From an uncultured Planctomycetaceae bacterium (lineage in GTDB: Bacteria; Planctomycetota; Planctomycetia; Planctomycetales; Planctomycetaceae): 64,000 bases of DNA. The position numbers and the translations under genes were made by a program. The notes beneath the pieces are model-generated. The model was not told the DNA's origin and made no database searches. It saw nothing but the letters and a program-made list of their open reading frames with translations. This document shows positions 9,757 to 57,722 of the stretch, piece by piece (the stretch's first letter is position 1; the number at the start of each line of letters is the position of its first letter). The stretch lies in contig CAWFAK010000007.1 of NCBI GenBank assembly GCA_963813715.1, positions 1-64,000 on the forward strand, read 5' to 3'.

Positions 9757-10980
9757 TTATACGTTCTCCAACCCCTGGAACTTGCCCACGCGTTTGAGCT
9801 CTTTGAGGAGCAGCGACGCGTTGCCGAAGCGGTCGTCGCGGTTCTTTTCCAGCATCTTCAGCACGATCCCCTCGAAGAGCGGCGGGATCGAGAGTTGGTA
9901 CTTGGTCGGCTTGGTCGGTTTCTCCCCCTGGATTTTGCGGATCGTGTCGGCGGCATTTTTGCCTTCGGCCGGCGCGTGCCCCGTGAGCACCCGATAGCAG
10001 GTCGCTCCCAGGTTGTAGATGTCGCTGCGACTGTCGATCTCGTCGGATCCCAGCGTCTGCTCGGGAGACATGTAAGGCAGCTCGCCCACCATCTCGCCGG
10101 AACGCGTGATCGATTGCACCATCGGCCCTTCCATGGCCTTCGCGAGCATCAGGTCGGCCAGCTTGGCGACTTTGTCCTTCGAGCGGATCAGGATGTTGCT
10201 CGGCGTGATGTTGCGGTGCACGAACTTGTGCTGCTCGGCCACTTCCAGGGCTTCCGTGATGTCGACGGCGGCCCGGAAGACCGTCTCCCACTCGAGCATG
10301 CCGCCGATGCCCAATCGCTTGATCACGTCGGCCAGGCTCTCACCCTCGACCAGCTCCATCGCCATCCAGCAGTAGCCGTCGGTGACGCCGGCGCCGTACA
10401 GGCGGACGATATTCTCGTGCTGCACGGGGAGCATCGTTTTGATCGCGCGGATAAAACGGTCGAGCTCGCGCGAGTCTTGCGTCAGCTCGGGCCAGAGGAC
10501 TTTGAGTGCGACGGGGCGTTCGTTCTTGGTGTCGACGGCGCGAAAGACGGCCCCCGAGCGACCGCTATCGATCTGCGAACCGATCGTATAGCGGACCAGC
10601 GTCGTGCCGACCAACTTGCTCAGCGGATTGTCGCGTTGCCCGTCGGGCCTGGGAGTTTTGGCTGCTCCGGGCGGCAGCGTTTCGGTGCCCGAGCCGAAGC
10701 GAATTTGCGTTTCGCCCAGCTCGAAGACATCGCCCGCCTTGAGCTTTTGCTGATCCTTGACCGGGTTGCCGTTGAGCCGCGTCCCCCAGGTGCTGCCGGC
10801 ATCGGCGAGGATCACGCCGTCGTCGGAGACCTGGAGCTTGCAGTGCACGCGCGAGGCCCGCGGGTCGGCCAGTTGCACGTCGCAGTCGTCGCCGCGTCCC
10901 AGGAGGAACGTTTTTCCCGGCGGAAGCTCGACCGTCCGCCCCTTTTCCGGCCCGTTACAAATCACCAGCTGGAAAGCCAT
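9757..10980 (-). CDS. FHA domain + Ser/Thr kinase-like protein (probable pseudokinase)
   Basis: FHA motifs GR...SRVH...STWGT.LNG; kinase VALK and YMSPEQ, but HRN and DLM replace HRD and DFG. Confidence 0.85.
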   Translation of the reverse strand: MAFQLVICNGPEKGRTVELPPGKTFLLGRGDDCDVQLADPRASRVHCKLQVSDDGVILADAGSTWGTRLNGNPVKDQQKLKAGDVFELGETQIRFGSGTETLPPGAAKTPRPDGQRDNPLSKLVGTTLVRYTIGSQIDSGRSGAVFRAVDTKNERPVALKVLWPELTQDSRELDRFIRAIKTMLPVQHENIVRLYGAGVTDGYCWMAMELVEGESLADVIKRLGIGGMLEWETVFRAAVDITEALEVAEQHKFVHRNITPSNILIRSKDKVAKLADLMLAKAMEGPMVQSITRSGEMVGELPYMSPEQTLGSDEIDSRSDIYNLGATCYRVLTGHAPAEGKNAADTIRKIQGEKPTKPTKYQLSIPPLFEGIVLKMLEKNRDDRFGNASLLLKELKRVGKFQGLENV

Positions 10981-11136
10981 GCCCGCCTCGTCTGCCTGTA
11001 TCGGCCTGATCGGACCCCTGCGAAGTGCCACAGGCCAGAATAGTCCGGCCGTCAACGGGCATCAAGCAGTTAACCGGCGGCTCATGGCGGCTGCCGGCGA
11101 CTGCGATCAACTGGTTGCCAATCAGCCGGATAGCGA

Positions 11137-13001
11137 TCAACCGGATTTGGACGGGGCGGACTCGATCGACAGGTCGGGCAAGGTGATCTTGAGCTTGTCG
11201 CGCTCTTTGGGCGTGAGCACCGATTTGGCAACCACCAGCCGCTTGAGCGAACGGACCTGCAGCAGCAGTTCAAAGGTCGACGCGGGAAGGGGCGTCTCTT
11301 TGGGCAGCTGAATCTCGGCCAACTCGATCTTGGGCGGGAGATCCTCGAATTTCTCGAACGTCGTGCCGTCCATGAGCACCACTTTGCCGCCGTGCAACAA
11401 GACCCATTCGGCCACCACGCGGTGCAACCGCTTGCGAATGAACTGGTCGTTCTCGTAGACGGCGAAGTGGGGCTGATCGTCCCCCTTGGGCACCACCAGC
11501 GTGCCGATCGTCGTCTTGGTGCTGGCGTCTCCTTCGGTCACGCTGAGTTCGTTATTTCCCTCCTTGAGCGGAATCGGTTGCTTGAGTTCGTCATGCGTGA
11601 CTTCCTTGTCGCCGATCGTGATCTTCGCCTGCCCCTGATCGATGGCCTTGCCGGTCTGGGCGCTGACTTTGATTTCGTCGGCCCCCGCTTGCTGCTTCAT
11701 CATCGTGGTGATCAGGCCCCACGTGACGCCGAAGCCCGCCACGACAATCAACACCGCCGTCGCCAGCATCCACGGAGCGATCACGATGCCGCGGCTCGGC
11801 GGAAGCGCGTCGAGCGATGGCATGGTGGCGGTGCGATCAATCGCAGGTAACGCCACACCCGTCGGCCGGCCGGCCGCATAAGCGTCGAGCGCGCGGACCA
11901 CGTCGGTCATCGTGGTGAAGCGGTCTTCGAGCCGCTTGGCGATCATCTTGAGGCAGATCGCCTCGAGGGCCGGATCGATGCCTCTTCTGATGCTCGACGG
12001 TTTGCGCGGCGCGGACCCGATGATCTGCCCCATCACGGAGGCGATCGAGCCTTTGAAGGGGACTTCGCCGGTCAATAGTTCGTAGAGAATGATGCCCAGG
12101 CTGTAGATGTCGCAGCCCGGGCCCATTCGCTCCATGTCTCCTTCGACTTGCTCGGGCGACATGTAGGCAGGGCTGCCCATCAACATGCCTTCCTGCGTGA
12201 GCCGCGAATCCTCTTTTTTGTTGGTTTGCCGCGCGAGGCCGAAATCCATGATGATCGGCTCCTGGTGGCCGTCGATCATGATGTTGGCCGGCTTCAAATC
12301 GCGATGAATCACGCCCCGCGCGTGGGCCGCCTCGATGCCCGGGCCAGCTTGAGCACAAACGTCGCGGCGTCGCGACCGTCGAGCGGGCCGCCATCGGCGA
12401 GCACTTCCGAGAGGGGCCGGCCCTCGATGTAAGCCATCGACAGGTAACGAATGCCGTCGATCTCGCCGACGTCGTAGACCGGGCACAAATTCGCGTGGCG
12501 GAGCATGGCGGCGGCGCGGGCCTCGCGGTAAAACCGCGCCGTCATTTCAGCGTCGTCGTCATCGTCGGCGAATTTCGGAATCTTGAGGGCGACGGGCCGC
12601 TCGAGCTGCGTGTCGTCCGCCAGGTAAACGGCTCCCATCGACCCCTGCCCCAGGCAGCGGACGACCTTGTACCGGCCGAACTGCTCCGGCAGCGAACAGG
12701 AACGCACGGGCGTGAAGGCCCGCGGCGGAACCGTCGTCTGGCTGGAGCGAGGACGGTACTCGGTGCCGTGATCGGTTTGCGGGATGCTGGTGGCCGTGTC
12801 GCTCTCCGCTGGAACGGGCGTTTGTCCGGCGGATTCGTCAGCGGCGAAATGCGAGCGCAGGGCGTCGGCCAACTGCGGATGACGAGACAGCAAGTCGTCG
12901 AGCGCGATCGATTCGCCCGCCGCGCGGCGACGCGAATAGTCCGCGAGCACCTGGTCGAGACGCGATTCCGACGACAGATGGGACGGGCCCGGCTCGCCCA
13001 T
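11137..13001 (-). CDS. membrane-anchored Ser/Thr protein kinase (frameshift ~12345)
   Basis: LGQGSMG, VALKIP, HRDLKPAN, DFGLA and YMSPEQ motifs; TM helix; C-terminal LRR-like segment. Confidence 0.88.
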
Positions 13002-16781: not shown

Positions 16782-18508
16782 ACCGCGATGCGGAAATCGA
16801 GCCGGCAGCGGGAAGGTCCGATTCGGGTGCGTCGGATCGCGACGCGATGGTCCTCCGGATGCTCGACGAAGTGACGTCAGAAGCGCGCGGCGGGAAAACG
16901 CCGGACTTTGAAGCGCTCGCTCGGCGGCATCCCGACCTTGTCGACGAGGTCCGCATGCTCTGGGCGACGGCCATGGTGGCCGAGGATTTTGCCAGCGTGT
17001 CGCAGGTGCTCGATTCGGTCGAAGCGCGCCGCCAGCGCTCCCAGCCGGCCGCCTACCTTCGAGCCTCGGCAGCGCGTCGGCGATTACGAGATTCTCGAAG
17101 AGATCGGTCGCGGCGGCATGGGTGTCGTGTTCCGCGCGCGGCAGATCAGCCTCGGACGGATCGTGGCCCTCAAGATGATCCTCCGCGGCGAGCTGGCCTC
17201 CGCGGCCGATCTCACGCGGTTTCGCGGCGAGGCCGAGTCGGCCGCCCGGCTGCACCATCCGCACGTGACGGCCGTCTATGAAATCGGTGACCACGAGGGG
17301 CAGCCGTTCTTCAGCATGCAGTTCGTCGAGGGGACGACGCTCGCCCGCCGCGTCGCCGAAGGGCCGCTGCCCGCCGCGAGGCGGCGAGTCTACTGCTCCC
17401 GGTCTGTCGGGCGATTGCCGAAGCGCACCGCCAGGGTTTGTTGCACCGCGACCTCAAGCCCTCGAACATTCTCATCGATCGCACGGGCCATCCGTTCGTG
17501 AGCGATTTCGGCCTGGCCAAGCGGGTCACGGCCGACAAAGCCGACGAAGATGAGCAGACTCGCTCGCTGCTCACGCACAGCGGGGCGATCGTCGGTACCC
17601 CCGGCTACATGGCTCCCGAGCAGGCGGCCGGCAACCGCGGCGAGGTCGGCCGCGCGACCGATGTCTACGGCCTGGGCGCCCTGCTCTACGCGACGCTGAC
17701 GGGCCGCGCGCCGTTTCAGTCGGCCTCGCCCGTCGACACGGTGCTGCAAGTGCTCGAGCAGGATCCCCTCCCCCCGCGGCTGCTCAATCCGGGCGTCGAC
17801 GCCGACCTGGAGATGATCGCCCTCCGCTGCCTGCAAAAACCGGCCGAGCTGCGCTACGCGACCGCCGACGAGCTGGCCGACGACCTCGAGCGATTTCTCG
17901 CCAACGAGCCGATCGCCGCCCGCTCGTCACGATTCGACCAGGTGCTGACGCGGGCCTTTCGCGAGACACACCACGCCGTTGTCTTAGAAAACTGGGGCGT
18001 GCTCTGGATGTGGCACAGCCTCGTACTCATCGTGCTGTGCGTCGTCACGAACGCGTTTCAATGGGACGGCATCACAGCCCGCCTGCCGTACGTCGGCCTG
18101 TGGACAATCGGCCTTGGGGTGTGGGCCGTCATCTTTTGGAACCTCCGCCGCCGCAGCGGCCCGATCACGTTCGTCGAACGCCAGATCGCCCACATCTGGG
18201 CCGGCAGCGTGATCTGCAGCACGCTCCTCTTCGGCATCGAAGCCCTGCTCGACCTGCCCGTGCTCACGCTCTCGCCCGTGCTCGGCCTGGTGAGCGGCAT
18301 GGTGTTCCTGGTCAAAGCCGGCATCCTGAGCGGCGCCTTCTACATCCAAGCGGCCGCCCTCTTCGCCACGGCCGGCGCGATGGCGCTCTGGTCCCGCACG
18401 GGCCTGCCGCCGCTGGGCATCTCCCTCTTCGGCATCGTCTCCGCCGTCTGCTTCTTCGTGCCGGGCCTCAAATACTATCGACAGCAACGCTCGCGGCTCC
18501 GGGGCTAA
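16778..18508 (+). CDS. Ser/Thr protein kinase with C-terminal multi-TM domain (2 frameshifts)
   Basis: [26 protein letters not shown] and [10 protein letters not shown] motifs; about 6 TM helices. Confidence 0.9.
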
Positions 18509-19372: not shown

Positions 19373-21124
19373 TCAATACCGCCAACTCGTGAGATCCGCT
19401 CCCGGCGGGGCTGACTTGAGAATCCGTGCCAGGATCTTCGGCGCGTGCATCTGGTGGTAGCGGAGGCGGGAGAACGCGTTCGGCCGCGTGGGGTCGCCGT
19501 TCCAGCAGTGTTCCGCGCGGTCGCCGTACGCGACCTCGCCGTCGTAATGCGGGTCCTTCGTGGTTTTCAAAAACTCTTCCACGAGGTAGACGGCGTTGTT
19601 GAGGTAGTAGTTGTCCATGTCGCCGCAGTAGATGTGAATCTTGCCCTGCAGCTTCTTGCCGATTTTGGGCCAGTCGCGCTGGAGGATGTGGCCCAGGTCG
19701 TAATGCTCGCGCCAATACTCGGCGACCGAGTGGTCGATCTGGCCGGTGGCTTTGTCCCAGATCGGCTTCGGGTAGCCGTCGTCGCCCGTGGGTGAATAAA
19801 CGGCCTGCCAGATGTCCCACTGATCGCCCGAGCGCGAGTTCGTGCCCAGCACCAGCTCACGGCGATTGGAGTCTTCGAGCGTGATGCCGACTTCGCCCAA
19901 ATAGTTGCGGCTGCCCGGGCGAGGCGTTTTGGCGAACTGGCTGTCGGCGTAGTACGCGTTCTTGTGCTCGTACAAGTTGACGACCGTGTACGAGCGAAAA
20001 TCGATCGGATCGGGGCACGCCACCCAGCAGCCGTTGTATTGGTCAGGATAGAAGATCTGCACCGCCAGCGACTCCCAGCCGCCGGTCGAGCCGCCGTAGA
20101 GAAAGCGGGCCCAGCCTTCGCCGATGCAGCGAAATTGCTTTTCGACCTCGGGGACGAGCTCGTAGGTGATCGCGTCGCCGTACGGGCCGAGGTTGGCCGA
20201 GTTCACCGCGTAGGAATCGTCGTAGTACGGGTTGGCGTGCTGGATTTCGATCATCACCATCCGCGGGAAACCGGGCCCGGTCCAATCCTTGTAGAGCTGG
20301 TGGGCGTATTCCTGCTCGATCTTGTTGTAGCCGTGCAGCTTGAATCGCTTGTTGTAATCGGGCTTGAGATTGGGATCGGCCGGCGTCTCGCGAAAGCCGT
20401 CGATCGTCGCGGGAAAATGGCCGTGAAAGATCGCCAGCGGATAGCGGGCTTTGGGATGTTCCTCGAAGCCGTGGGGGAGTAGCACGCAGGCGCCGAGATG
20501 CATCGGCCGGCCCCAGAATTCCGTCAACAGCTTGCTTTGGATCTTGATGTGCTTGATGTACTTGGTGTCCTTCGGCGGCTCGATGGGGGGAATCTCCTGG
20601 TCGAGCACCAGCGTCTCGACCGCCCCGTGCTGCGGATCAAAGTGGATCTTTTTCGGCGTGCTGAAGAGATTGCCCGGCGCCTTATTCCATTGCTGCCCCT
20701 CGCCCCGATCCATCGGCAGCTTCACGGTGTGGCCGTTTTTCAGATGAAACGTTTCGTACTTGTGCAACAGCGCCTGGACCCAATACTCGCCGGCCGGCAC
20801 GTCCGCGAGACTCTTGATCGGGTAGCCCAGCACCGACCGATCGACGACGGCCGCCTCGCCCGGCTTCAATCCGTCGACATTGATGCCAAACACCAGCTGC
20901 GTGTTGGCGTCGCCCGTGATTTGAAACCGTGGCTCCTGGGCGTTGTCGGTCGAGAGCATCACCAACAGGCGACCGTCGAGCGGAGCGGCGCTTTTGGCTG
21001 CCGGGAAACTCACATGGAAACTCATTCCGGCGTCCTTCTTAGTGTCTTGAGCGTGGGAGCACTGGGAGCGGAGCGAGGCGACGCACAGCAGAATAAACGA
21101 AGAAGCAAAGCGGGTGCGCGTCAT
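19373..21124 (-). CDS. secreted alpha/beta-hydrolase (putative esterase family)
   Basis: GGSTGG nucleophile motif, YAVNSANLGPYG and GDMDNYYL; signal peptide. Confidence 0.8.
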   Translation of the reverse strand: MTRTRFASSFILLCVASLRSQCSHAQDTKKDAGMSFHVSFPAAKSAAPLDGRLLVMLSTDNAQEPRFQITGDANTQLVFGINVDGLKPGEAAVVDRSVLGYPIKSLADVPAGEYWVQALLHKYETFHLKNGHTVKLPMDRGEGQQWNKAPGNLFSTPKKIHFDPQHGAVETLVLDQEIPPIEPPKDTKYIKHIKIQSKLLTEFWGRPMHLGACVLLPHGFEEHPKARYPLAIFHGHFPATIDGFRETPADPNLKPDYNKRFKLHGYNKIEQEYAHQLYKDWTGPGFPRMVMIEIQHANPYYDDSYAVNSANLGPYGDAITYELVPEVEKQFRCIGEGWARFLYGGSTGGWESLAVQIFYPDQYNGCWVACPDPIDFRSYTVVNLYEHKNAYYADSQFAKTPRPGSRNYLGEVGITLEDSNRRELVLGTNSRSGDQWDIWQAVYSPTGDDGYPKPIWDKATGQIDHSVAEYWREHYDLGHILQRDWPKIGKKLQGKIHIYCGDMDNYYLNNAVYLVEEFLKTTKDPHYDGEVAYGDRAEHCWNGDPTRPNAFSRLRYHQMHAPKILARILKSAPPGADLTSWRY

Positions 21125-21158
21125 GAGGGGTGTCTCTGGGAGTGAGAAGCGGGCGGTA

Positions 21159-21198
21159 GGTGTGGCACGCCCTGCTAAGGGCGTGGCGGCCGTCTCGG
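21159..21198 (+). repeat. REP family A (GTGTGGCACGCCCTGCTAAGGGCGTGG)
   Basis: Hairpin CACGCCCT/AGGGCGTG; 37/40 identical to 21913-21952. Confidence 0.88.
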
Positions 21199-21234
21199 AA
21201 TTACCCTCTGTTTCGACGGTTCCGAACCTCTCGG

Positions 21235-21828
21235 TCACGAGTCGTACATCATCGGCAGCGTCGCATCGATTTGGAACGGCACTGGCCGCATTCCTGCATA
21301 CCATCGCGCACTGGACCATTCCCAGTCTGTCGCGCGTTCACACAGGCGACGCCGAACCGGGTTGTGGTGAATGTAGTCGATCATCGATTCGAGCGTCTGT
21401 TCATTGGATACGTTGCGGTCGTATCCACCTCCTGGCTGCCAAAATCGGCGACGGGTGACGTTCCCTTCAACGACTGTGATTTTCGCCAAGAAGTCTGGAG
21501 CATTGTCTTTCAGCCAGCGGATCGCCGGCCGCGCCGTCTGTTCCTTGACGAAACCAGCGAAGCGACCGAGGTCGAGTTTTGGCTCGCGTGGACTGACAAG
21601 CAAATGGACGTGCTCGGGCATCAGGACGTAAGCCCAAACATCTACGGGCCAACGTTGGCGGCCTTTCTCCAGCGCCGCGATGAACCATTCTCGCGTCCGG
21701 TCACGCTCAAGGAATCGGAACCGATGATAGCAGGAGAAAGTGAACTCTCTCGGCTCGCGATTGACTTCGTATCGCTTACGGCGTTTACGGAAGCAGGATT
21801 GCGCGGAGCTGGGATCGTGGATGCGCAT
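21235..21828 (-). CDS. REP-associated tyrosine transposase (RAYT; Y1 HUH)
   Basis: FTFSC, AYVLMPEHVHLL (HUH), FWQPG, YIHHNPV and WEWSSA motifs; flanked by REPs. Confidence 0.92.
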   Translation of the reverse strand: MRIHDPSSAQSCFRKRRKRYEVNREPREFTFSCYHRFRFLERDRTREWFIAALEKGRQRWPVDVWAYVLMPEHVHLLVSPREPKLDLGRFAGFVKEQTARPAIRWLKDNAPDFLAKITVVEGNVTRRRFWQPGGGYDRNVSNEQTLESMIDYIHHNPVRRRLCERATDWEWSSARWYAGMRPVPFQIDATLPMMYDS

Positions 21829-21912
21829 GAGGGAGGCCCCAAAGGTGCCCCCATGCTACCCAAAGTCGAACGAATCTCCCGCATGGAAAATGAAAATCAC
21901 GCGCAAGACGGC

Positions 21913-22020
21913 GGTGTGGCACGCCCTGCTAAGAGCGTGGCGCACGTCTCGGGCGCGACTTCTCAGATACATTCGCCGAACACCCACCACGCCCTTCCTG
22001 ACGTCAGGGCGTGCCACCCG
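21913..22020. repeat. inverted REP family A doublet (REPIN-like)
   Basis: + copy at 21913-21942 and - copy at 21985-22020 with an expanded loop. Confidence 0.85.
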
Positions 22021-22021
22021 A

Positions 22022-22122
22022 CCGCGACGCGGAGCGCCCGGCCACACGCCAACCCGAGAGTTGAATGGCGGAGTGGCGCAAAAGTCTGGGGGCGAACCGC
22101 AGACGGTTCGACCCGAGCCACC
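22022..22122 (-). repeat. two further REP-like palindromes (families C and B)
   Basis: Reverse complement GTGTGGCCGGGCGCTCCGCGTCGCGG (22022-22047) and GGTGGCTCGGGTCGAACCG..CGGTTCGCCCCCAG (22086-22122). Confidence 0.7.
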
Positions 22123-22185
22123 GACGCTCAGATTACCCTGGAGTTGGCGCGGGTTCCATGACAGGGCTTGGGCACGAAAGCAGGA

Positions 22186-23584
22186 TTATCTAGTCGCTGC
22201 AGAGTGGTCAGGCGGCTCCCAGGCAATCTTGTCGAAGACCTGTTGGAGTTTCGCCCCCGCTCGCGCTGCGTCATCGCCACATAGGCGATCTTTCCCTGCA
22301 GATGTTCGCGAAAACGCGGGTGGTCGCCGCGGTTTTGCGATTCCGGTCCGAAGCGACAGCAATTGTGCAACGTCGCCTTCAGCCGATCGTATTCGTCGCG
22401 TGGCACGTTGATCCGGCGGTTGACGACCAGCCCCGCGATCGATTGCTGGGCGCCCGACCGCATGACGCGCGTCTTGCGATGCCGAATCGCGAATCCCTCG
22501 TCGAGCACGATTGCGCAGACGAAGACTCGAAAGCGGTGCAGACTCCGCTCGAAATTGGAGTCGCCTGAAAAGATCAAATCGTCGGCATAGCGCGTGTAAT
22601 TCGCATCGACACTGCGTGCCAGTCCCGTCAATCGGCAGTCGAGGCGATAGGCACAGAAGTTCGCCAAAGCCGGCGACGTCGGCGCCCTTGGGGCAGATGC
22701 GGCTGGCGAAAGATCTGCCAGAGTTCGTGTCGGCGACCGGTCGCGTCGTCCGGCAGAAAGAAACTGTCGTCAACTGCGTTCGTGCAGAGCGCGGCCAGCA
22801 ACCTCGCGACTCCTTCGGGATAGCCGAGAGTATGAAACAGCGCATGAATTCGCGATTGCCGAATTCGCGGAAAAAAGTCTCGCAGGTCGATCCGCAGGAC
22901 GACGCGCTGCCCGACATGAGGCGCGGCACAAGTAATTGTCGAACGTTGCGAACGGAACGCGTGCGCGGACGGATGCGGAGGAATGACGCCCAGAATTTCG
23001 CCGAGAATCTGCCGCTGAATCTCCTTCAGCCGCGGCTTGGGGCTTTCGACGAGCCGCTGTCGTCCGCCCGACTTGGCGATCCAGCGGTAGCGATAATGCC
23101 CCAGTTTGCTGTCCGCTGCGCTCCGGCCGTATCGGCGACAACCGGCAAACCAGTCGAGCTGGCTGATGGTAATCCCCAGCCAGTCGGCCAACTCGCCGGC
23201 GGTGACGAGTCCGGGAAGCTCATCCATTCCGACGATCGCCGGCGCCGGAGCCATCTCCGGACGAGGAAGGCCGAGGACATTCGTGACCAACGTCAATTGG
23301 AACTGTTCCAACGGCTCTTGTCGCTGAGCTTTTGCGACGAGACGCTCGATGGCCCGACAAAACTTTCGATCGGCCGCGAGGAAACTCGTGAGCGCGGCGT
23401 GTCGCGGCGTCGGAGGATGCAAGCCGAACCGCGCGAGGACACGGGCAACGAGCGGATCAATCCATCGCGGGGAGCGCGACAGCTCAAAGACCTGCATCAA
23501 ACGGGCGCTGATGCCGGCGCCCGTCCAATCGCCGGCAAGCAAAGCCGTCGCTGCATCACGTGCGATGGAGACCGATGGGAGCAT
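22186..23584 (-). CDS. retron-type reverse transcriptase, ~466 aa after repairing 2 single-base deletions
   Basis: K.GG..R.VESPKPRLK..QR, AHAF, region-X-like CAAPH, DLRDFFP, LPQG(A)PTSP..AN, YTRYADDLIFS, region-Y IAGLVVN; indels in C runs at ~22685-22687 and ~22254-22258. Confidence 0.92.
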
Positions 23585-23591
23585 AAGAACG

Positions 23592-23762
23592 GGGAACGGA
23601 GCGTCTCGCGAAGACTCGTCGGGCGCGAGCAGTACTGCGCCCTCGCGCAGTGACGCTCACGCTGCGAATTGGTCAAAGTCCAGTGGGTTCGTCGGGGTAA
23701 CCCCGACAAGGCGGACACAACCGAAGGCCGGTCGAATCGCCAACCTGAGACGCCCCGCCCCC
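23592..23762 (-). ncRNA. retron msr-msd non-coding RNA
   Basis: a2 (23762-23747) pairs with a1 (23607-23592) over 16/16 nt including 3 G-U; AG follows a2; stems at 23741-23710 and 23707-23691; msd hairpin at 23662-23623. Confidence 0.85.
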
Positions 23763-23769
23763 GACATTG

Positions 23770-23799
23770 ACGCTAAGCCGGCAACCCCACGAGGGTCAA
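23770..23799 (-). promoter_or_regulatory. candidate sigma-70 promoter of the retron
   Basis: TTGACC-N18-TAGCGT, ending 7 nt before a2. Confidence 0.5.
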
Positions 23800-23857
23800 G
23801 CACCCTCTGCAGGCAACTCGTGATGCGGCCCAAAGCGTGCCACCGCACTCAGGCCAG

Positions 23858-23888
23858 GCCGCACCGGGTGCAGGGGCACGCCCCTGCT
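23858..23888 (+). repeat. 31-bp REP-like repeat, copy 1
   Basis: gccgcaccgggtgcaggggcacgcccctgct; identical to 24858-24888. Confidence 0.92.
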
Positions 23889-24633
23889 AGTTTCGGCTGC
23901 CGCCTTGCAGCTTCGACAGCAAGCGGAGGATTTCGAGGTACATCCAGACGAGCGTCACCATCAGGCTGAAGCCGCCGTACCATTCCATGTACTTGGGGGC
24001 CTGCATCTGAACGCCGCGCTCGATGAAGTCGAAGTCCAAAACCAGGTTCAGGGCCGCGATGACCACGACGACCAGGGAGAAGCCGATGCCGATATATCCC
24101 GACTCATGGATGTACGGGATGTGTGCCCCGAAAAACGAGGCGACGATGTCCACCAAATAGACCAGGCAGATGGCGCCGGTCGCCGCCACGACTCCGATTT
24201 TGAATTTCTCCGTCACGCGAATGATGCCCGTCCCGTAAACGAAGAGCATCGTGGCCAACACGCCGACGCTCAGTCCGACGGCCTTGATTGCGATACCGTG
24301 GTAGCGGGCCTCAAAGATCGCGGAAATCGCGCCCAGAACCAGCCCTTCCAGGGCGGCATAAACCGGAGCAGAAAACGGAGACGCCTTCGGCATGAAAATC
24401 GTCAACAGCGCCGTGGCGAATCCGCCGATCGAGCCAACCATCAGCAGCCCGTACGTGAGCGGCGACCCGGCCATTGCCTGAAACCACGTGTAGACGGCCG
24501 TGGCCATCAGGATCATGAGCAGGCCGGCCGTCTTCACCACCGTCCCCTCGAGCGTCATCACCGAGCTCGATTCGAACGCGCGCCCGGCCCGATCGTAAAC
24601 CGCAGTGTTCATCGCCGGATTGGCGGTCGCCAT
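23887..24633 (-). CDS. Bax inhibitor-1/YccA family membrane protein
   Basis: MTLEGTVVKT, PVYAALEGLVLG, NLVLDFDFIE..V...APKYMEWY..FSLMVTLVWMYLEILRLL; about 7 TM. Confidence 0.9.
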   Translation of the reverse strand: MATANPAMNTAVYDRAGRAFESSSVMTLEGTVVKTAGLLMILMATAVYTWFQAMAGSPLTYGLLMVGSIGGFATALLTIFMPKASPFSAPVYAALEGLVLGAISAIFEARYHGIAIKAVGLSVGVLATMLFVYGTGIIRVTEKFKIGVVAATGAICLVYLVDIVASFFGAHIPYIHESGYIGIGFSLVVVVIAALNLVLDFDFIERGVQMQAPKYMEWYGGFSLMVTLVWMYLEILRLLSKLQGGSRN

Positions 24634-24745
24634 AGCTCGTTCTCCGTGGGATTTTCAACAAGTCAACGGTCAGATTAACCAACGCGGCAGCGGAACGGCA
24701 ACGTGGGGTCAAGCGGTCAGGCGAACCACCCAGTCGGTGGTCACC

Positions 24746-24780
24746 CTGGGGGCGGCGAAAACGCCGACCCCAGCCACCCG
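24746..24780 (-). repeat. REP family B palindrome
   Basis: Reverse complement CGGGTGGCTGGGGTCGGCGTTTTCGCCGCCCCCAG; related to 22086-22122. Confidence 0.75.
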
Positions 24781-24841
24781 ACGCCCATCGTCCAGAGCTC
24801 AGCCGCACGCAGAGTCAGCGTGAAGCGGCAAAAGCGCTCCA

Positions 24842-25276
24842 TCAAGCGTCCGGATCAGCCGCACCGGGTGCAGGGGCACGCCCCTGCTGGTGGAATTCGG
24901 GCCAGCGTTGCCAGGCGTAGGTCCACTCCATCCACAGCCGCATCACCGACCAGAGCAGACGCATCCGCGCCAGATGTTCCTGCGGCAGACGCTGCTTGTT
25001 GGCGAACGATTCGCGGGCCGCGTCGGCCAGGTTCCATTGCTCGGCCAGGCTGCGGCAGACGGAATCGGGGGTGAGGTCGTTTTCGGGCGGTTCGCCGGGC
25101 TTGGGTTCTTTCAGCAGATCGGCCCCGTCGGCCATCACAAACAGCTCGAATAGACGGCTGCGGAGCGGATCGAGCTCGAGCGGACGCTGTGTTTCTTCGG
25201 CTTCGCGGACGAGCAGGTCGATCTGCGACAGAATGCTTTTGGCCAGCGACGGCTCGATCGAAGTGGGCACCGACAT
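24842..25276 (-). CDS. conserved-looking hypothetical protein
   Basis: GAGGAGG RBS; LFELFV...LWSVMRLWMEWTYAWQRWPEF; 3' end formed by a repeat. Confidence 0.7.
   Translation of the reverse strand: MSVPTSIEPSLAKSILSQIDLLVREAEETQRPLELDPLRSRLFELFVMADGADLLKEPKPGEPPENDLTPDSVCRSLAEQWNLADAARESFANKQRLPQEHLARMRLLWSVMRLWMEWTYAWQRWPEFHQQGRAPAPGAADPDA
24858..24888 (+). repeat. 31-bp REP-like repeat, copy 2
   Basis: Identical to 23858-23888; lies in the last codons of the 24842-25276 CDS. Confidence 0.92.
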
Positions 25277-25372
25277 GTCAGCCTCCTCAGCCCTCCATCT
25301 TAAGCTTCGAAACAAAGCGAGGACAGGCCCTGGCAGAGCCCGTCCCCGCTTTTTGTCAGCTGAAACTTGCGA

Positions 25373-26483
25373 TTACGGAGTGGCGATTCCGCCGGCGGTG
25401 GACCACGCCGAGTGCGGGAACAGGAAGTAGACGCCGGCAATTGAGCCGGCTTCCACGGCGGCCGCCTCGGTGTTCCACGGAATCTGATAGAAGAGCTTCG
25501 GAGCACATTCGCCCGGGCGATAGAAACCGAGAGGATAGACTCGGCAACAGCAGGGATCGATCGTCATCTGGTACGGGATGCCGATGGACTGCACGGTGAA
25601 TCGCAGGGACGACACGATCGGCTGGATGAAGAACGGCCACGCGTGACCGTAACGCTCCAGGTCCGGATCCTCGAAGTACAGCGGCTGATAGAAGACGTTC
25701 GAGGCCTGCCACGTGTAGGTGCTGGCCGGGAAGACGCGCGGCTCAAACGGCCCATTCGAGAGCTGGACTTCGTTCGGACACTCGGGCCCCTTCCCGTCGG
25801 CGGTCTTGCAAGGCGCGCCGTCCGGACGCGGGCACAAGTTCTGGCACGGATCCTCGGCCGCCACTTTCGGATCCGGCTCGTAATCCAAAAAGGGCATGAT
25901 CTGCGTTACTTTCGGCAGCTGGCTGGGCGTTTTCGACCTGCTCGGCTTCCGGCAGATTATCGGGAATCACACCCGGGCGGGCGGTGCTCGAGTTGAACCG
26001 ACCGGAGAACGGCAGACGCTGACTCGCCTGGGCCATGTACGCGCCGTTGGCGGCCGGTGCCATGTAGGCACCGTTGGTAGCGGGCGTCGGGTAGACGCCG
26101 TTCGGCTGCGGCGCGGGCACCATCTGCGGACGATAGCCGTTGGCCGTTTGCGTGGCGGCAGGCGAAAGGTCCATCGGCTGCTGTGGGCTGGCGACCGGCT
26201 GTTGCGCGTAGCCGGCGTACTGCGGCGTGCCCATCGTCCCCTGAGCGGCAGCCGCCTGCATTTGCTGATTGCGCTGTGCCCAGCGGGTATTCGCGGGAGC
26301 GGCGGCCGGAGCCGGCGGGACATCGCCCGTCGGGAAGTTGGCTGTCACCGCGGGGTCAGCGGCGGCCGGCAGGGGCAGTTGGAACTGTTCGTCGCCGGCA
26401 CGCAGCCCGGTAAGGTCGGCCGCCAGCAACAAAGCCGCGGCCGCTCCGCCCAGCAGCCGGCTAGCCGACTTCGACCGGAGCAT
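25373..26483 (-). CDS. secreted hypothetical protein with PLYFED..LERYG motif (frameshift ~25900)
   Basis: Signal peptide, Pro/Ala/Gln-rich linker, C-terminal [16 protein letters not shown]...[11 protein letters not shown]. Confidence 0.65.
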
Positions 26484-27967: not shown

Positions 27968-28966
27968 TTATGTGTTGGCCGCGGCGGGCAAATCCCCGTC
28001 GGCGACTGTGCCCACGAGCTGAGAAAAGTCGTTCGACAAATTGACCAGTTGAGCGGGAGACAGTTGCTCGGCCCGCGCGTCGGCCTTGAGGCCGTGCGGG
28101 ACCAGCACGTCGTCGATTTGTGTGCGGTTGAGCTGGCGGCGATACATCGAGATCAACACGTTCCGCAATAATTTACGCCGCTGCTGAAAGACTTCGCGGA
28201 GAAATTGGTGCAGGAATTCGCGGTCTTTGATTTTCGCCCGCAACTCGGGATCGGGATCGAGGCGGATCATCGCCGAGGCGACTTTCGGCCGCGGCCAGAA
28301 GACATCGGGCGGCAAGTGCTTAAGCACTTCGAGCCGACACTGCGCCTGCAGCCAGACCGAGAGCGCGCCGTAGTTCGACGTCCCTTGCTTTGCCGCCATC
28401 CGCTGCGCCAGCTCGTACTGAATCGTGACGACCATCCGTTCCCACGGATACTCGCTCGCCAAGAGATTCGAGATGACGGGCGTGGCGACGCCATAGGGCA
28501 GATTGGCGACGAGCTTGAGCCGCTTGATCGGCCCGCTCGAATCCTCTCCCCTCTCCCCTTGCGGGAGAGGGGCCGGGGGTGAGGGGTCCTGCGCCTCCCA
28601 GCCCCCGCTCAATCGCCTCGAGCACGGCCAGCGAAAAGCGATTCTTGTTCTTCAGCACGTCGGACCGATAAGCGTGACGTTCGTGAAGCCAGCCACCGCT
28701 TCCGCCGTCAGCTGCTGCATCCGCGAGTCGACCTCGACGGAAATCACCGCGCCCGCCTGCGCCGCCAGACACGCGGTCAGGCTGCCCGTGCCCGAGCCGA
28801 CTTCCAGCACGAGATCGTCGGGGCCAAGTTCCGCTTGCGCGATGAGGAACTCGAGCAGATTCAGATCGATGAGGAAATTCTGGCCCAGGTCATGTCGCGG
28901 TCTCAGTCCATGGCGCGCGAGCAGCTCGCCGATGTGAGTCCGCGTTTGGCGTACGACCTGGTTCAT
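27968..28966 (-). CDS. rsmA: 16S rRNA adenine dimethyltransferase (frameshifted; contains a repeat insertion)
   Basis: [30 protein letters not shown] and QRRKLLRN motifs; 2 frameshifts. Confidence 0.93.
28548..28586 (-). repeat. DUF559-associated repeat inside the rsmA coding sequence
   Basis: Reverse complement CCCCTCACCCCCGGCCCCTCTCCCGCAAGGGGAGAGGGG. Confidence 0.85.
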
Positions 28967-29611
28967 TTCCCCTGCTGGATTGCGCCCAGATATTTCTGGA
29001 TGTATTTGCCGATGATGTCCGTTTCGAGATTCACACTGTCGCCCGGCTTCCGCACGCCGAGCGTCGTCACTTCTAGGGTGTGCGGCACGAGCGCCACGCT
29101 GAAGCGGCCGCGCTCGACGTTCACGACCGTCAGGCTCACGCCGTCGACCGCGACGGATCCTTTCGGCACGAGCTGAGCGACGAGCGGTTCCGGTGCGCGA
29201 AACCACATCGTGACCCATTCGCCCTCGCGCTCGGAGCGATCGACGTGTCCCACGCCGTCGACATGCCCCTGCACGAAATGTCCGCCGAGCCGCCCGTCAG
29301 CCGGCAACGCCCGCTCGAGATTGACGACGTCGCCGGTTTGAAGCGTGCCAAGATTCGTTTTGGACAGCGTTTCGCTGCCGGCCTGAAAGGCCCACTGCTC
29401 GCCCCTGCCCTTCGAATGCGACCGCCGTCAGGCAGCAGCCGTTGATGCAGACACTCTCGCCCACGCGACCTGCGCCGCCAAAGTCGGCGGGAACGCGAAT
29501 GGTGAGCCGGATCGGTTTGTCGATCGGGGGGAGCGCAGGAGAATCGGGACCGGCCGCATCCGGCCGGACATCGTTCACAACGCCGCGGCCTGCCACCAGC
29601 CCAGTAAACAT
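28963..29611 (-). CDS. ribE: riboflavin synthase alpha chain (frameshifted)
   Basis: MFTGLV, GESVCINGCCLT, GGHFVQGHVDG, KGSVAVDGVSLT and VNLETD motifs. Confidence 0.93.
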
Positions 29612-29756
29612 CAGCACCCTCGGCGCAGAAGACTCACACGAGGAAGCCGGTCAGCCTGAGCATGGCAGCGGCAGGAGACGAAGAGAGTAAGGTGCTCCAT
29701 CGTCCCACTATGGCAAATCAAGCGCGGCGCGTCAATTTCGTCGTGATTCCATTTGG

Positions 29757-52024: not shown

Positions 52025-53189
<1,165 letters not shown>

Positions 53190-55090: not shown

Positions 55091-57722
<2,632 letters not shown>

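Follow-up and report, generated by a model that had tools for sequence, protein, structure and literature searches.

Retrons are currently viewed as three-part anti-phage systems in which a complex of reverse transcriptase (RT) and msDNA restrains a toxin. Lineages that lack a toxin gene fall outside this picture, and what they do has been a question ever since the 2020 catalogue. The same question is raised by a locus in the 64,000-nucleotide stretch of planctomycete DNA analyzed here (the window), in which a sequence-only reading had recognized a retron-type RT, preceded by an msr-msd RNA and a candidate promoter, but no recognizable effector gene. Is a partner hidden next to the RT or fused to it, or does the cassette stand alone? 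We find that the locus is a self-contained retron, consisting of its own putative promoter, a structured RNA, and an RT, without a partner gene. It is probably a functional stand-alone cassette of an effector-less lineage, in which the breaks in the RT reading frame are errors of assembly. The locus leaves the wider question of effector-less retrons unanswered, but it supplies a clean, well-delimited example of 1.6 kb.

The cassette occupies the minus strand from 23800 to 22186, where promoter-like boxes (23770..23799), an msr-msd-type RNA of ~175 nt (23590..23763), and a retron-type RT gene (22186..23584; 466 residues once read across two 1-base gaps) follow one another in that order over ~1.6 kb. 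Only 5 nt separate the a2 arm of the RNA from the RT start codon. The analysis confirms the observation made in the sequence-only reading. Its limits are also visible from outside, as homology with the orthologous locus of genome G007 begins at ~23799, at the −35 box, and is confined to ~23799–22193, i.e., to the stretch from the promoter through the stop codon.

The structure of the RNA is well supported. As a single sequence, the region 23585–23800 folds at −107.7 kcal/mol (z = −4.05), with the a1 arm (23763–23747) pairing with the a2 arm (23607–23590) in a 17-bp long-range stem, two msr hairpins at 23741–23710 and 23709–23689, and an msd region at 23674–23613 that contains a long hairpin. 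An RNAalifold consensus from five sequences supports this structure, and in all 12 of the other orthologous loci a match to a covariance model (R1) immediately precedes the RT. In an alignment of 16 loci that was fitted to the model's structure, and hence favors it, 91.8% of cells pair, and compensatory changes affect both sides in 53 of 60 pairs; none of 500 shuffles reaches the observed level, and slid controls are at most 47% paired. Orthologous RNAs share 81–96% identity at synonymous divergences of 0.4–1.4. Searching the genome with R1 at E ≤ 0.01 recovers only the window's own copy, and a search of Rfam with the region 21000–25500 at E up to 10 returned no retron family (including the msr family) or other credible family. 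The guanosine at 23744 on the minus strand, three bases 3′ of a1 and invariant in five close orthologues (alignment column 30), is a candidate for the branching (priming) residue by analogy with characterized retrons.

Upstream of the RNA, a −35 box TTGACC (23799–23794) and a −10-like box TAGCGT (23775–23770) are separated by an 18-nt spacer, and the element stops ~7 nt upstream of the position where a1 begins. Both blocks are invariant in five orthologues while the spacer varies, and in 16 of 24 loci the RNA is closely preceded by the pattern TTGAC-N17-20-TAnnnT. A strict sigma-70 scan returned zero promoters. From their sequence and conservation, we infer that the boxes constitute a dedicated promoter. 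A terminator scan gave a single terminator-like site, which lies inside the RT open reading frame and is at chance level. Contigs from two RNA libraries, X15 and X16, span 23590–23945 and 23588–23917, respectively, together with parts of the RT gene; they are uninformative on strand, ends, and level, and DNA may have been present, so no conclusion on expression is drawn from them.

Could the missing effector be part of the RT itself? The sequence-only reading had raised the possibility that the long N-terminal extension is a fused effector, and had suggested modeling it and searching for its fold. We used P0001, an intact 466-residue homologue with 95% identity to the window RT, whose full-length AlphaFold model has a pLDDT of 91.6 and a pTM of 0.88. 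Residues 1–92 (23309..23584, minus strand) form a bundle of five helices (residues 3–16, 22–32, 42–53, 62–71, and 73–89) that is specific to this RT lineage, followed directly by a poorly ordered linker, residues 93–125 (23308–23210). If the ~92-residue bundle were an effector or sensor, the single protein would be a complete two-part system comparable to the RT-fused types I-C, VII-A1, XI, and XII. Consistent with this, the bundle is conserved under purifying selection (dN/dS 0.20–0.37) and is confidently placed in the full-length model, no other effector is encoded nearby, and the paralogous lineage described below carries a different N-terminal extension, which shows that this protein end is modular. 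The domain is small, however, and resembles no enzymatic or pore-forming fold: nothing rose above noise in the fold searches of the N-terminal model, where the best Foldseek match had an E-value of 2.5 and the best match in a fold search with VIA had a Z-score of 5.6, which for helical bundles is quoted as lying within the noise. The best ESM Atlas score for residues 1–125 was 0.80, a value reached by shuffled sequences a third of the time. Among Pfam and PADLOC profiles, only those of RT families match the N-terminus, and the PADLOC models RT_other and RT_outgroup already extend over it. The bundle is never found alone (no matches among proteins of 30–255 residues) or with other domains, since all 16 proteins that match it belong to the RT family (13 with PF00078 and three short forms), although this search was word-based and distant relatives could escape it. 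Moreover, the known fused retron effectors in Table 1 of PMC7736814 are C-terminal. A fused effector is accordingly improbable, and nothing marks the bundle as one. It is probably an accessory part of the RT, peculiar to this lineage, for which binding of RNA, msDNA, or a partner is more likely than catalysis.

A second possibility is that the cassette is simply dead. The RT gene runs on the minus strand from the ATG at 23584 to the stop codon at 22186–22188 and is spread over three frames. A tblastn search with P0001 places the breaks after residue 300 (between QG and AP) and residue 444 (between ERG and AK), and in a nucleotide alignment the window is one base short at exactly two columns, where four of four orthologous genomes have the base. 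If both deletions were real, as they stand in the window sequence as given, the RT would be a true pseudogene in this strain and the cassette would be decaying; a RAYT/REP block just downstream, which is a strain-specific insertion of ~1 kb relative to genome G002, does show that the locus has been disturbed. Against this, the RT has no further lesions and no in-frame stops within any of its frame segments, and the comparison with G002 reveals purifying selection on that branch, with dN/dS of 0.20–0.27 outside the 33-codon linker (the linker itself gives 1.03, on very few changes). The same kind of break affects recA, alaS, a Ser/Thr kinase gene, and ribE in the same window as well as the genome's second RT, and the completeness of the genome, 82.6%, is low for an assembly of 18 contigs. 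Near-identical short-read contigs from close relatives point the same way: a base is inserted at 22254 in all three runs that cover the site and at 22685 in both runs with a bridging contig (X2 and X16), while a further run, X1, has no bridging piece among those listed and shows no insertion. Because the orthologues and the relatives' short-read contigs carry the base, and because other genes of the window are broken alike, the two 1-base deletions are most likely assembly errors rather than features of the lineage, as the sequence-only reading had supposed; a pseudogene is distinctly unlikely. At the two sites themselves the comparison is with sequences of relatives, and the deletions may yet be real in this isolate. 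The earlier description of the two sites as homopolymer deletions is only approximate: the missing bases adjoin 22686 and 22255, each at or beside a run of G, and the closest metagenome contigs have an additional C there on the coding strand. More generally, in an assembly with this many single-base indels, genes that appear broken should not be read as pseudogenes.

That leaves the neighboring genes. Directly upstream, on the same strand as the RT, lies a YccA/BaxI gene (23887–24633; Pfam BaxI_1, 9.4e-77), and downstream of the RT there is an IS200/Y1-type transposase ORF (21235–21828; Pfam Y1_Tnp, 4.7e-6). On the YccA side, the cassette is bounded by a REP-like repeat (23859..23887, minus strand), which belongs to the context rather than to the retron; it has an exact second copy at 24859–24887, where zero matches are expected by chance, and many unrelated metagenome contigs match this stretch alone. 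The repeat sits between the YccA/BaxI gene and the promoter-like boxes, so the earlier observation that a REP and a candidate promoter separate that gene from the RNA is correct. YccA/BaxI is a multi-pass membrane protein by its Pfam family and is encoded directly upstream on the same strand in three of 13 orthologous loci (the window, G002, and G007), which could suggest a tripartite retron with a transmembrane effector as in type IV, where a membrane protein gene is linked to the RT. It is missing, however, from the other 10 loci, and in five of five genus members tested (G003, G009, G010, G011, and G005) it is present at 70–85% identity with no RT after it; in G005, the RT lies ~2 Mb away. 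In addition, BaxI has no PADLOC match, the REP and a separate promoter-like element intervene before the RNA, and homology with G007 resumes only at the −35 box. We therefore reject BaxI as the effector, a role that is very unlikely for it; the adjacency is a matter of genus-level synteny only, without a specific link to the RT. In none of the genus members without the RT does synteny extend past BaxI, so that neither an insertion scar nor a target site can be made out downstream of it. Within the genus, 5 of 12 genomes have an RT of this lineage.

Across the 13 orthologous loci, the neighbor clusters held in common reflect genus-level synteny or belong to families abundant in planctomycetes (DUF1501, DUF1559, and PSCyt), and no neighboring gene is conserved. 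Pfam detected no known retron effector family among 47 flanking proteins of 12 loci, and PADLOC gave only generic kinase matches among 50 ORFs of the window. The claim that the locus has no recognizable effector gene thus survives the comparison of homologues.

The RT carries the hallmarks of retron RTs. Sequence reading identifies region X as CAAPH (22916..22930, the equivalent of NAXXH), the catalytic YADD motif (22578..22589), and region Y as IAGLVVN (22419..22439, the equivalent of VTG), all on the minus strand. In 95 homologues, H223 of region X, all of Y333, A334, D335, and D336, and G385 and N389 of region Y are invariant, while the N of NAXXH is replaced by C or another residue and the T of VTG by A. 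The two pieces of the RT match the PADLOC model RT_other best (6.7e-71 and 6.4e-62; 237.9 and 208.3 bits), followed by RT_outgroup (217 and 198.3 bits) and, with a total ~150 bits below RT_other, by RT_XIII (1.2e-44 and 2.3e-42; 151.2 and 143.6 bits); other retron types score lower. Retron families of NCBIfam match at 3.7e-54 to 8.4e-50, versus 4.2e-10 for group II and 3.7e-7 for Drt2. A profile search of the PDB ranks the Ec86 RT first (4.5e-50), with the best group II intron RT at 8.9e-8, and the Ec86 RT is also the top Foldseek match of the P0001 model (9.8e-23). A non-retron RT (group II-like, DGR, or UG/Abi/DRT) whose upstream hairpins serve another role is extremely improbable, for although Rfam yields no msr match and Pfam RVT_1 stays below its gathering threshold for each piece, retron RTs lead those of group II, DRT2, DRT9, and DGR by 30–40 orders of magnitude in all family and structure searches, regions X and Y are present, and the RNA has the a1/a2-msr-msd layout and ends 5 nt ahead of the start codon. 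By the rankings in PADLOC, NCBIfam, the PDB profile search, and Foldseek, as distinct from an RT tree, the protein sides with the retron RTs and not with RTs of the group II, DGR, UG/Abi, or CRISPR classes.

Where among retrons does it belong? The RT is most likely a member of clade 11 sensu Mestre et al. 2020, an assignment in which RT_other and RT_outgroup are equated with clade 11 on the basis of the model names and of the designation 'OutgroupA/B' in the available text of PMC13712802. Clades 2 and 11 have been described as containing stand-alone (msr-msd)-RT cassettes (Mestre et al. 2020, NAR, PMC7736814, available text). As in clade 11 cassettes, the window RT has regions X and Y, is preceded by an msr-msd RNA, and lacks a protein cluster specifically associated with it, and its pieces fit best to the two PADLOC models, whose profiles also cover the N-terminal extension. 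Unlike clade 11, which is essentially actinobacterial according to the same catalogue text, the host is a planctomycete; in the available text of a 2026 SPIRE survey (PMC13712802), however, clade11-B candidates are concentrated in Planctomycetota, with these members classed as low-confidence, i.e., divergent. This survey was the one relevant work found in the literature on planctomycete retrons, and a retron census preprint (PMC10849725) makes no mention of clade 11, an outgroup, or planctomycetes. Neither the N-terminal bundle nor the family-wide paralogue comes up for clade 11 in the available portions of PMC7736814 and PMC13712802.

The nearest typed RT model is that of type XIII (RT clade 10; Retron-Mxa1/Mx162, Mxa2/Mx65, Sau1/Sa163, and Nex2/Ne144), which agrees in part with an earlier placement near Mx162 and Sa163. 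Like type XIII RTs, the window RT is long, with an N-terminal extension of at least 100 residues, and both seem to be passed on vertically within a bacterial lineage (for type XIII, available text of PMC7736814). The placement fits less well beyond this: RT_XIII scores clearly below RT_other and RT_outgroup, its profile positions 1–107 fail to align with the window N-terminus, and the SWIM Zn-finger/winged-helix protein (cluster 114) that defines type XIII, usually with HEAT/ARM accessory proteins, has no counterpart in the 13 loci (Pfam) or in the window (Pfam and PADLOC). In RT clade 2, most RTs of the Retron-Eco5 (Ec107)-like branch likewise have no associated protein (PMC7736814, available text), but the relation is distant (PADLOC RT_Ec107-like, 2.6e-24 and 5.3e-24), and these RTs, from Gammaproteobacteria and Bacillota, are short and have no N-terminal extension (profile length 307). 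Finally, the RT of Retron-Eco1 (Ec86; PDB 7v9u and 7v9x), the best sequence-profile match in the PDB, shares the RT fold (TM-score 0.80–0.83 normalized to the target, 26–27% identity), whereas Ec86 is a tripartite type II-A3 system with an NDT-like effector and an RT of 320 residues without the 125-residue N-terminal extension. Since stand-alone cassettes are already described in the available text of PMC7736814, the locus is a fresh example of catalogued, functionally unexplained stand-alone retrons, not a new system.

How might such a cassette work? The dedicated sigma-70-like promoter would transcribe the ~175-nt RNA, whose ends would pair as the 17-bp a1/a2 stem. By analogy with characterized retrons, the RT would bind the msr hairpins, prime from the 2′-OH of the guanosine next to this stem (the candidate at 23744), and copy the msd hairpin region into branched msDNA, with no cis-encoded gene acting as an effector. 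Tentatively, and with the odds somewhat against it, the cassette may serve as an accessory phage-sensing module, whose output would come from the RT–msDNA complex itself or from an unlinked host factor. Along with its intact orthologues and the paralogue shared by the family, the module could serve to test msDNA production and the role of effector-less retrons, and the compact RT and RNA could interest those who use retrons for genome editing.

Every one of the 24 complete genomes sampled in the host's family carries the paralogous cassette; the host's copy is on contig C12, and its lineage looks vertically inherited. Directly downstream of the paralogous RT, 12 of 17 loci encode a conserved membrane protein of ~240–290 residues that matches nothing in Pfam or PADLOC. 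We rejected it as a dedicated partner: it is single-copy in 24 of 24 complete genomes sampled from the family, and many of these (e.g., G016, G179, and G148) encode it well away from the RT, whether on the same contig or a different one. It is conceivable, though doubtful, that the retrons of this family are effector-less altogether and do not act by classical abortive infection, with the paralogue inherited vertically, the window lineage mobile as a bare promoter–RNA–RT module, and the msDNA–RT complex with its lineage-specific N-terminal domains as the functional unit. If so, that unit could have a regulatory function, act as a nucleic-acid decoy or sensor, or amount to a new kind of self-contained defence, and retrons would have a role that needs no toxin partner. 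The base composition of the RT gene also sets it apart, with a third-position GC of 0.69 compared to ~0.8 in the neighboring genes, which is consistent with recent acquisition and also with weak selection.

The cassette is a compact module on the minus strand, between 23800 and 22186, in which a candidate promoter, an RNA of retron architecture and a retron-class reverse transcriptase (RT) with all catalytic and retron-specific motifs follow one another. Both the RNA and the RT are under selection, no neighbouring gene is conserved with them, and the observation made in the sequence-only reading is confirmed. The RT gene extends from the ATG at 23584 to the stop codon at 22186–22188 and is split across three frames, which residues 1–300, 301–444 and 445–466 of P0001, an intact 466-residue homologue with 95% identity, match successively (tblastn). 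In a nucleotide alignment, the window is one base short relative to all four closest orthologues (G002, G007, G006 and G005) at exactly two columns, one adjoining 22686 and one adjoining 22255, both of them at or beside G runs of the coding strand; these are the two deletions repaired in the sequence-only reading. The motifs recognized at that stage, CAAPH (22930–22916), YADD (22589–22578) and IAGLVVN (22439–22419), are all present on the minus strand, and H223, Y333-A334-D335-D336, G385 and N389 are invariant among 95 aligned homologues.

The 216 nt 5' of the start codon are predicted to fold with −107.7 kcal/mol (z = −4.05 relative to shuffled sequences). The consensus structure common to the five closest orthologues comprises a 17-bp terminal stem formed by a1 (23763–23747) and a2 (23607–23590, ending 5 nt ahead of the ATG), two short hairpins (23741–23710 and 23709–23689), and a branched region with a long hairpin (23674–23613), all on the minus strand, and this predicted layout is that of a classical msr-msd. 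R1, a covariance model built from these five RNAs, has a full-length hit immediately 5' of the RT in each of 12 further orthologous loci (E 6.7e-23 to 6.4e-10), and among more distant paralogues it hits 11 of 18 loci. Among the 16 best sequences, standard pairs occupy 91.8% of cells and 53 of 60 pairs vary on both sides; this level was matched by none of 500 shuffles, and pairing falls to 38–47% when the partners are slid by 1–3 columns. The alignment was fitted to the structure of the model and is biased towards it, but the margin over these controls is large. The RNA is 81–96% identical among orthologues, and the synonymous divergence of the adjacent gene is 0.4–1.4. Rfam holds no match for it. 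The msr-msd RNA proposed from the sequence is borne out by fold, terminal stem, R1 matches and covariation, and the invariant G at 23744, three bases past a1, is a candidate branching G. Contigs from X15 and X16, two metatranscriptome libraries from different studies, both start at 23588–23590, where the 3' end of the RNA is predicted to lie, 4–6 nt from the RT start codon; within 23588–23945 they cross the RNA and reach the last part of the BaxI gene. Because another X16 contig covers 23455–23617, the shared start is no more than a weak hint.

About 7 nt upstream of a1, invariant TTGACC and TAGCGT blocks flank a variable 18-nt spacer, and a TTGAC-N17-20-TAnnnT pattern occurs at the equivalent place in 16 of the 24 loci examined. 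Since a stricter sigma-70 scan reports no promoter, the dedicated promoter suggested at first reading remains a candidate, supported by its phylogenetic footprint. Homology between the window and G007 resumes at ~23799 and ends at ~22193, a span bounded by the −35 box and the stop codon. On the upstream side, a REP-like element (23859–23887) separates the module from the YccA/BaxI gene; as had been noted, both this element and the promoter-like blocks lie between that gene and the RNA. An exact 29-nt copy of this element lies at 24859–24887, each of the two copies being placed after one of two consecutive genes, and the same element is found on many unrelated metagenome contigs. Downstream, a block of ~1 kb (roughly 22128–21090) is missing from the closest relative, G002, where the next gene follows ~130 nt past the RT. 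The block contains an IS200/Y1-type transposase ORF (21235–21828) flanked by 40-nt direct repeats that are 92.5% identical (21158–21197 and 21912–21951), and looks like a RAYT/REP insertion.

The RT is a retron RT, as four kinds of search agree. In PADLOC, the top model for the two RT pieces is RT_other (237.9 and 208.3 bits), followed by RT_outgroup (217 and 198.3 bits) and RT_XIII (151.2 and 143.6 bits), with every other retron type lower. NCBIfam retron RT models match at 3.7e-54 to 8.4e-50, compared to 4.2e-10 for group II and 3.7e-7 for Drt2. A 95-sequence profile finds Ec86 (4.5e-50), Ec67 (1.2e-40) and Ec78 (1.4e-32) in the PDB, the best group II entry being at 8.9e-8, and the predicted model of P0001 (pLDDT 91.6, pTM 0.88) retrieves Ec86 with Foldseek (9.8e-23, TM 0.80–0.83 on the target) ahead of other RT classes. 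Retron RTs top all of these searches, rather than group II, DGR or UG/Abi RTs. Mestre et al. 2020 (PMC7736814) sorted retron RTs into 11 clades, of which clade 10 corresponds to type XIII (Mx162, Mx65, Sa163 and Ne144). The Mx162-like placement suggested earlier was close, but RT_XIII aligns only from residue 121 and ranks below RT_other and RT_outgroup, which we read as probable models of clade 11. A 2026 survey (PMC13712802) splits clade 11 by two RNA models, Outgroup A and B, and its low-confidence clade11-B candidates are concentrated in Planctomycetota. As (msr-msd)-RT cassettes lacking an effector were already published in 2020 (Mestre et al., PMC7736814) and the 2026 survey includes planctomycete members, the cassette belongs to a known, still unexplained kind. 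The planctomycete-retron literature searched, whose supplementary lists may include members, gave no dedicated account of this RT lineage, its N-terminal domain or the family-wide paralogue described below.

Neighbourhoods of up to 9 kb on either side of 12 orthologues were compared with the window. Apart from the RT itself, only DUF1501 proteins are common to more than three loci (four, at varying positions); DUF1559-type proteins occur in three and PSCyt proteins in two. Planctomycetes carry all three of these families in abundance. A BaxI gene ahead of the RT is confined to the window, G002 and G007, all from one genus, and five members of that genus have BaxI at 70–85% identity with no RT after it. 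By Pfam, the 47 flanking proteins are housekeeping and assorted (for example, FolD, phosphoglucomutase-family, peptidase M17, BirA, prephenate dehydrogenase, CobW and thioredoxin), and no member of an effector family from any of the 13 retron types is among them. Among 50 ORFs of the window, PADLOC gives only generic Ser/Thr-kinase matches, to PD-T4-6/mad6 kinase models (9760–11055, 11140–12486 and 17438–18505; down to 7.8e-64). In a phylum rich in kinases, these probably reflect general resemblance of the kinase domain and not defence genes. These comparisons support a stand-alone retron of unknown function.

RTs matching at E ≤ 1e-20 are found in 42 of 61 relatives, including 33 of 36 same-family genomes, and fall into two lineages. 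The window's lineage, in which the N-terminus aligns, is 74–91% identical within the genus and 42–56% elsewhere; it occurs in five of 12 genus genomes (G000, the window's own, and G002, G005, G006 and G007), in at least three different genomic contexts, and in scattered other genera and families. The paralogous lineage matches only from residue ~125 (43–50% identity), has a different N-terminus starting MGLFDFLRRLF, and is present in almost every family genome. In the own genome it is found on contig C12 (G000:C12:266530-267520; L002:1038-2497), with its own upstream RNA (R1 match of 27.3 bits) and a TTGACC-N17-TAGGAT promoter-like element. In an even phylum sample of genomes at least 90% complete, RTs match at E ≤ 1e-40 in all 24 family genomes, mostly through the paralogous lineage, and in 34 of 276 genomes outside the family. 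Third-position GC of the window RT (22186–23584) is 0.69 vs about 0.75–0.88 in flanking genes, consistent with horizontal acquisition or low expression. Taken together, the scattered versus family-wide distribution and the lower third-position GC suggest an accessory, mobile copy in the case of the window's cassette and a long-standing family resident in that of the paralogue. In 12 of 17 loci, the gene immediately after the paralogous RT encodes an uncharacterised membrane protein of ~240–290 residues (G000:C12:267542-268258, L002:2516-3229, plus 11 further loci); elsewhere this gene is distant from the RT. Pfam, PADLOC and NCBIfam gave no match for the protein; its motifs include ELEKDLxEWFRG, MPDQELF..IHPGPP, RSSPVFAI and QYLIIGLVTS, and it is single-copy in all 24 sampled family genomes, with no copy found on searching the phylum's 276 other genomes in the sample.

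By analogy with characterised retrons, the RT would bind the msr hairpins, prime on the 2'-OH of the G beside the a1/a2 stem and copy the msd hairpin into msDNA. We tentatively propose that the cassette serves as an accessory phage-sensing module, whose output would come from the RT-msDNA complex together with its N-terminal domain, or else via an unlinked host factor. The main alternative is a non-defence, domesticated role, which is more attractive for the family-wide paralogue.

The idea that the N-terminal extension is itself a fused effector found no support. In the structure model, residues 1–92 form a five-helix bundle, followed by a poorly ordered linker to residue ~125 and two short helices leading into the RT. 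Folded alone, the bundle reaches pLDDT 76 (above 80 for residues 1–88), and it is under purifying selection (dN/dS 0.20–0.37, vs 0.10–0.18 for the RT core). A PDB structure search gave no match (best Foldseek E 2.5), the best VIA-align Z of 5.6 falls below what is, according to the tool, common among helical bundles, and a protein atlas returned nothing useful; fold, atlas and family searches revealed no enzyme or pore signature. In a word-based search, no protein of 30–255 residues contains the domain, and all 16 matches among proteins of 256–816 residues belong to the RT family of the window. Since the alignments to RT_other and RT_outgroup start at residue 6 or 11, the extension is part of an already modelled family. 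Our conclusion is that the RT carries the bundle as an accessory domain specific to its lineage, and we consider an effector function unlikely.

That the RT is a real pseudogene in its own strain is very improbable, and keeps some probability because the frameshift comparison used sequences of relatives rather than the isolate's own reads. Short-read contigs of near-identical soil-metagenome relatives (in X2, a contig of 3,475 nt with 41 differences across 1,765 nt) carry the extra base at both sites: at 22254 in all three covering runs (X1, X2 and X15), and at 22685 in X2 and X16, X1 having depth but no listed bridging piece and X15 no coverage. Genes for recA (52025–53189), alaS (55250–57552), a Ser/Thr kinase (16908–18508, pieces 16908 and 17438) and ribE (28963–29617, pieces 29297 and 28963) are each likewise split among at least two frames by indels of one base; recA, for example, starts at 52025, loses its frame after ~75 real residues and picks up at 52548 in a different frame. 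Such split housekeeping genes, together with a completeness score of 82.6% for a 7.49-Mb genome in just 18 contigs, indicate a long-read-type assembly left unpolished. Genes of this genome that look like pseudogenes are not to be trusted, and its second RT, on C12, is also frame-split. The intact close relatives, the similarly broken genes, the genome-level signs and purifying selection make assembly errors, rather than real indels, the most likely origin of both RT frameshifts. Relative to G002, dN/dS of the window RT is 0.20–0.27 outside the 33-codon linker, as expected under purifying selection, and 1.03, from very few changes, within it.
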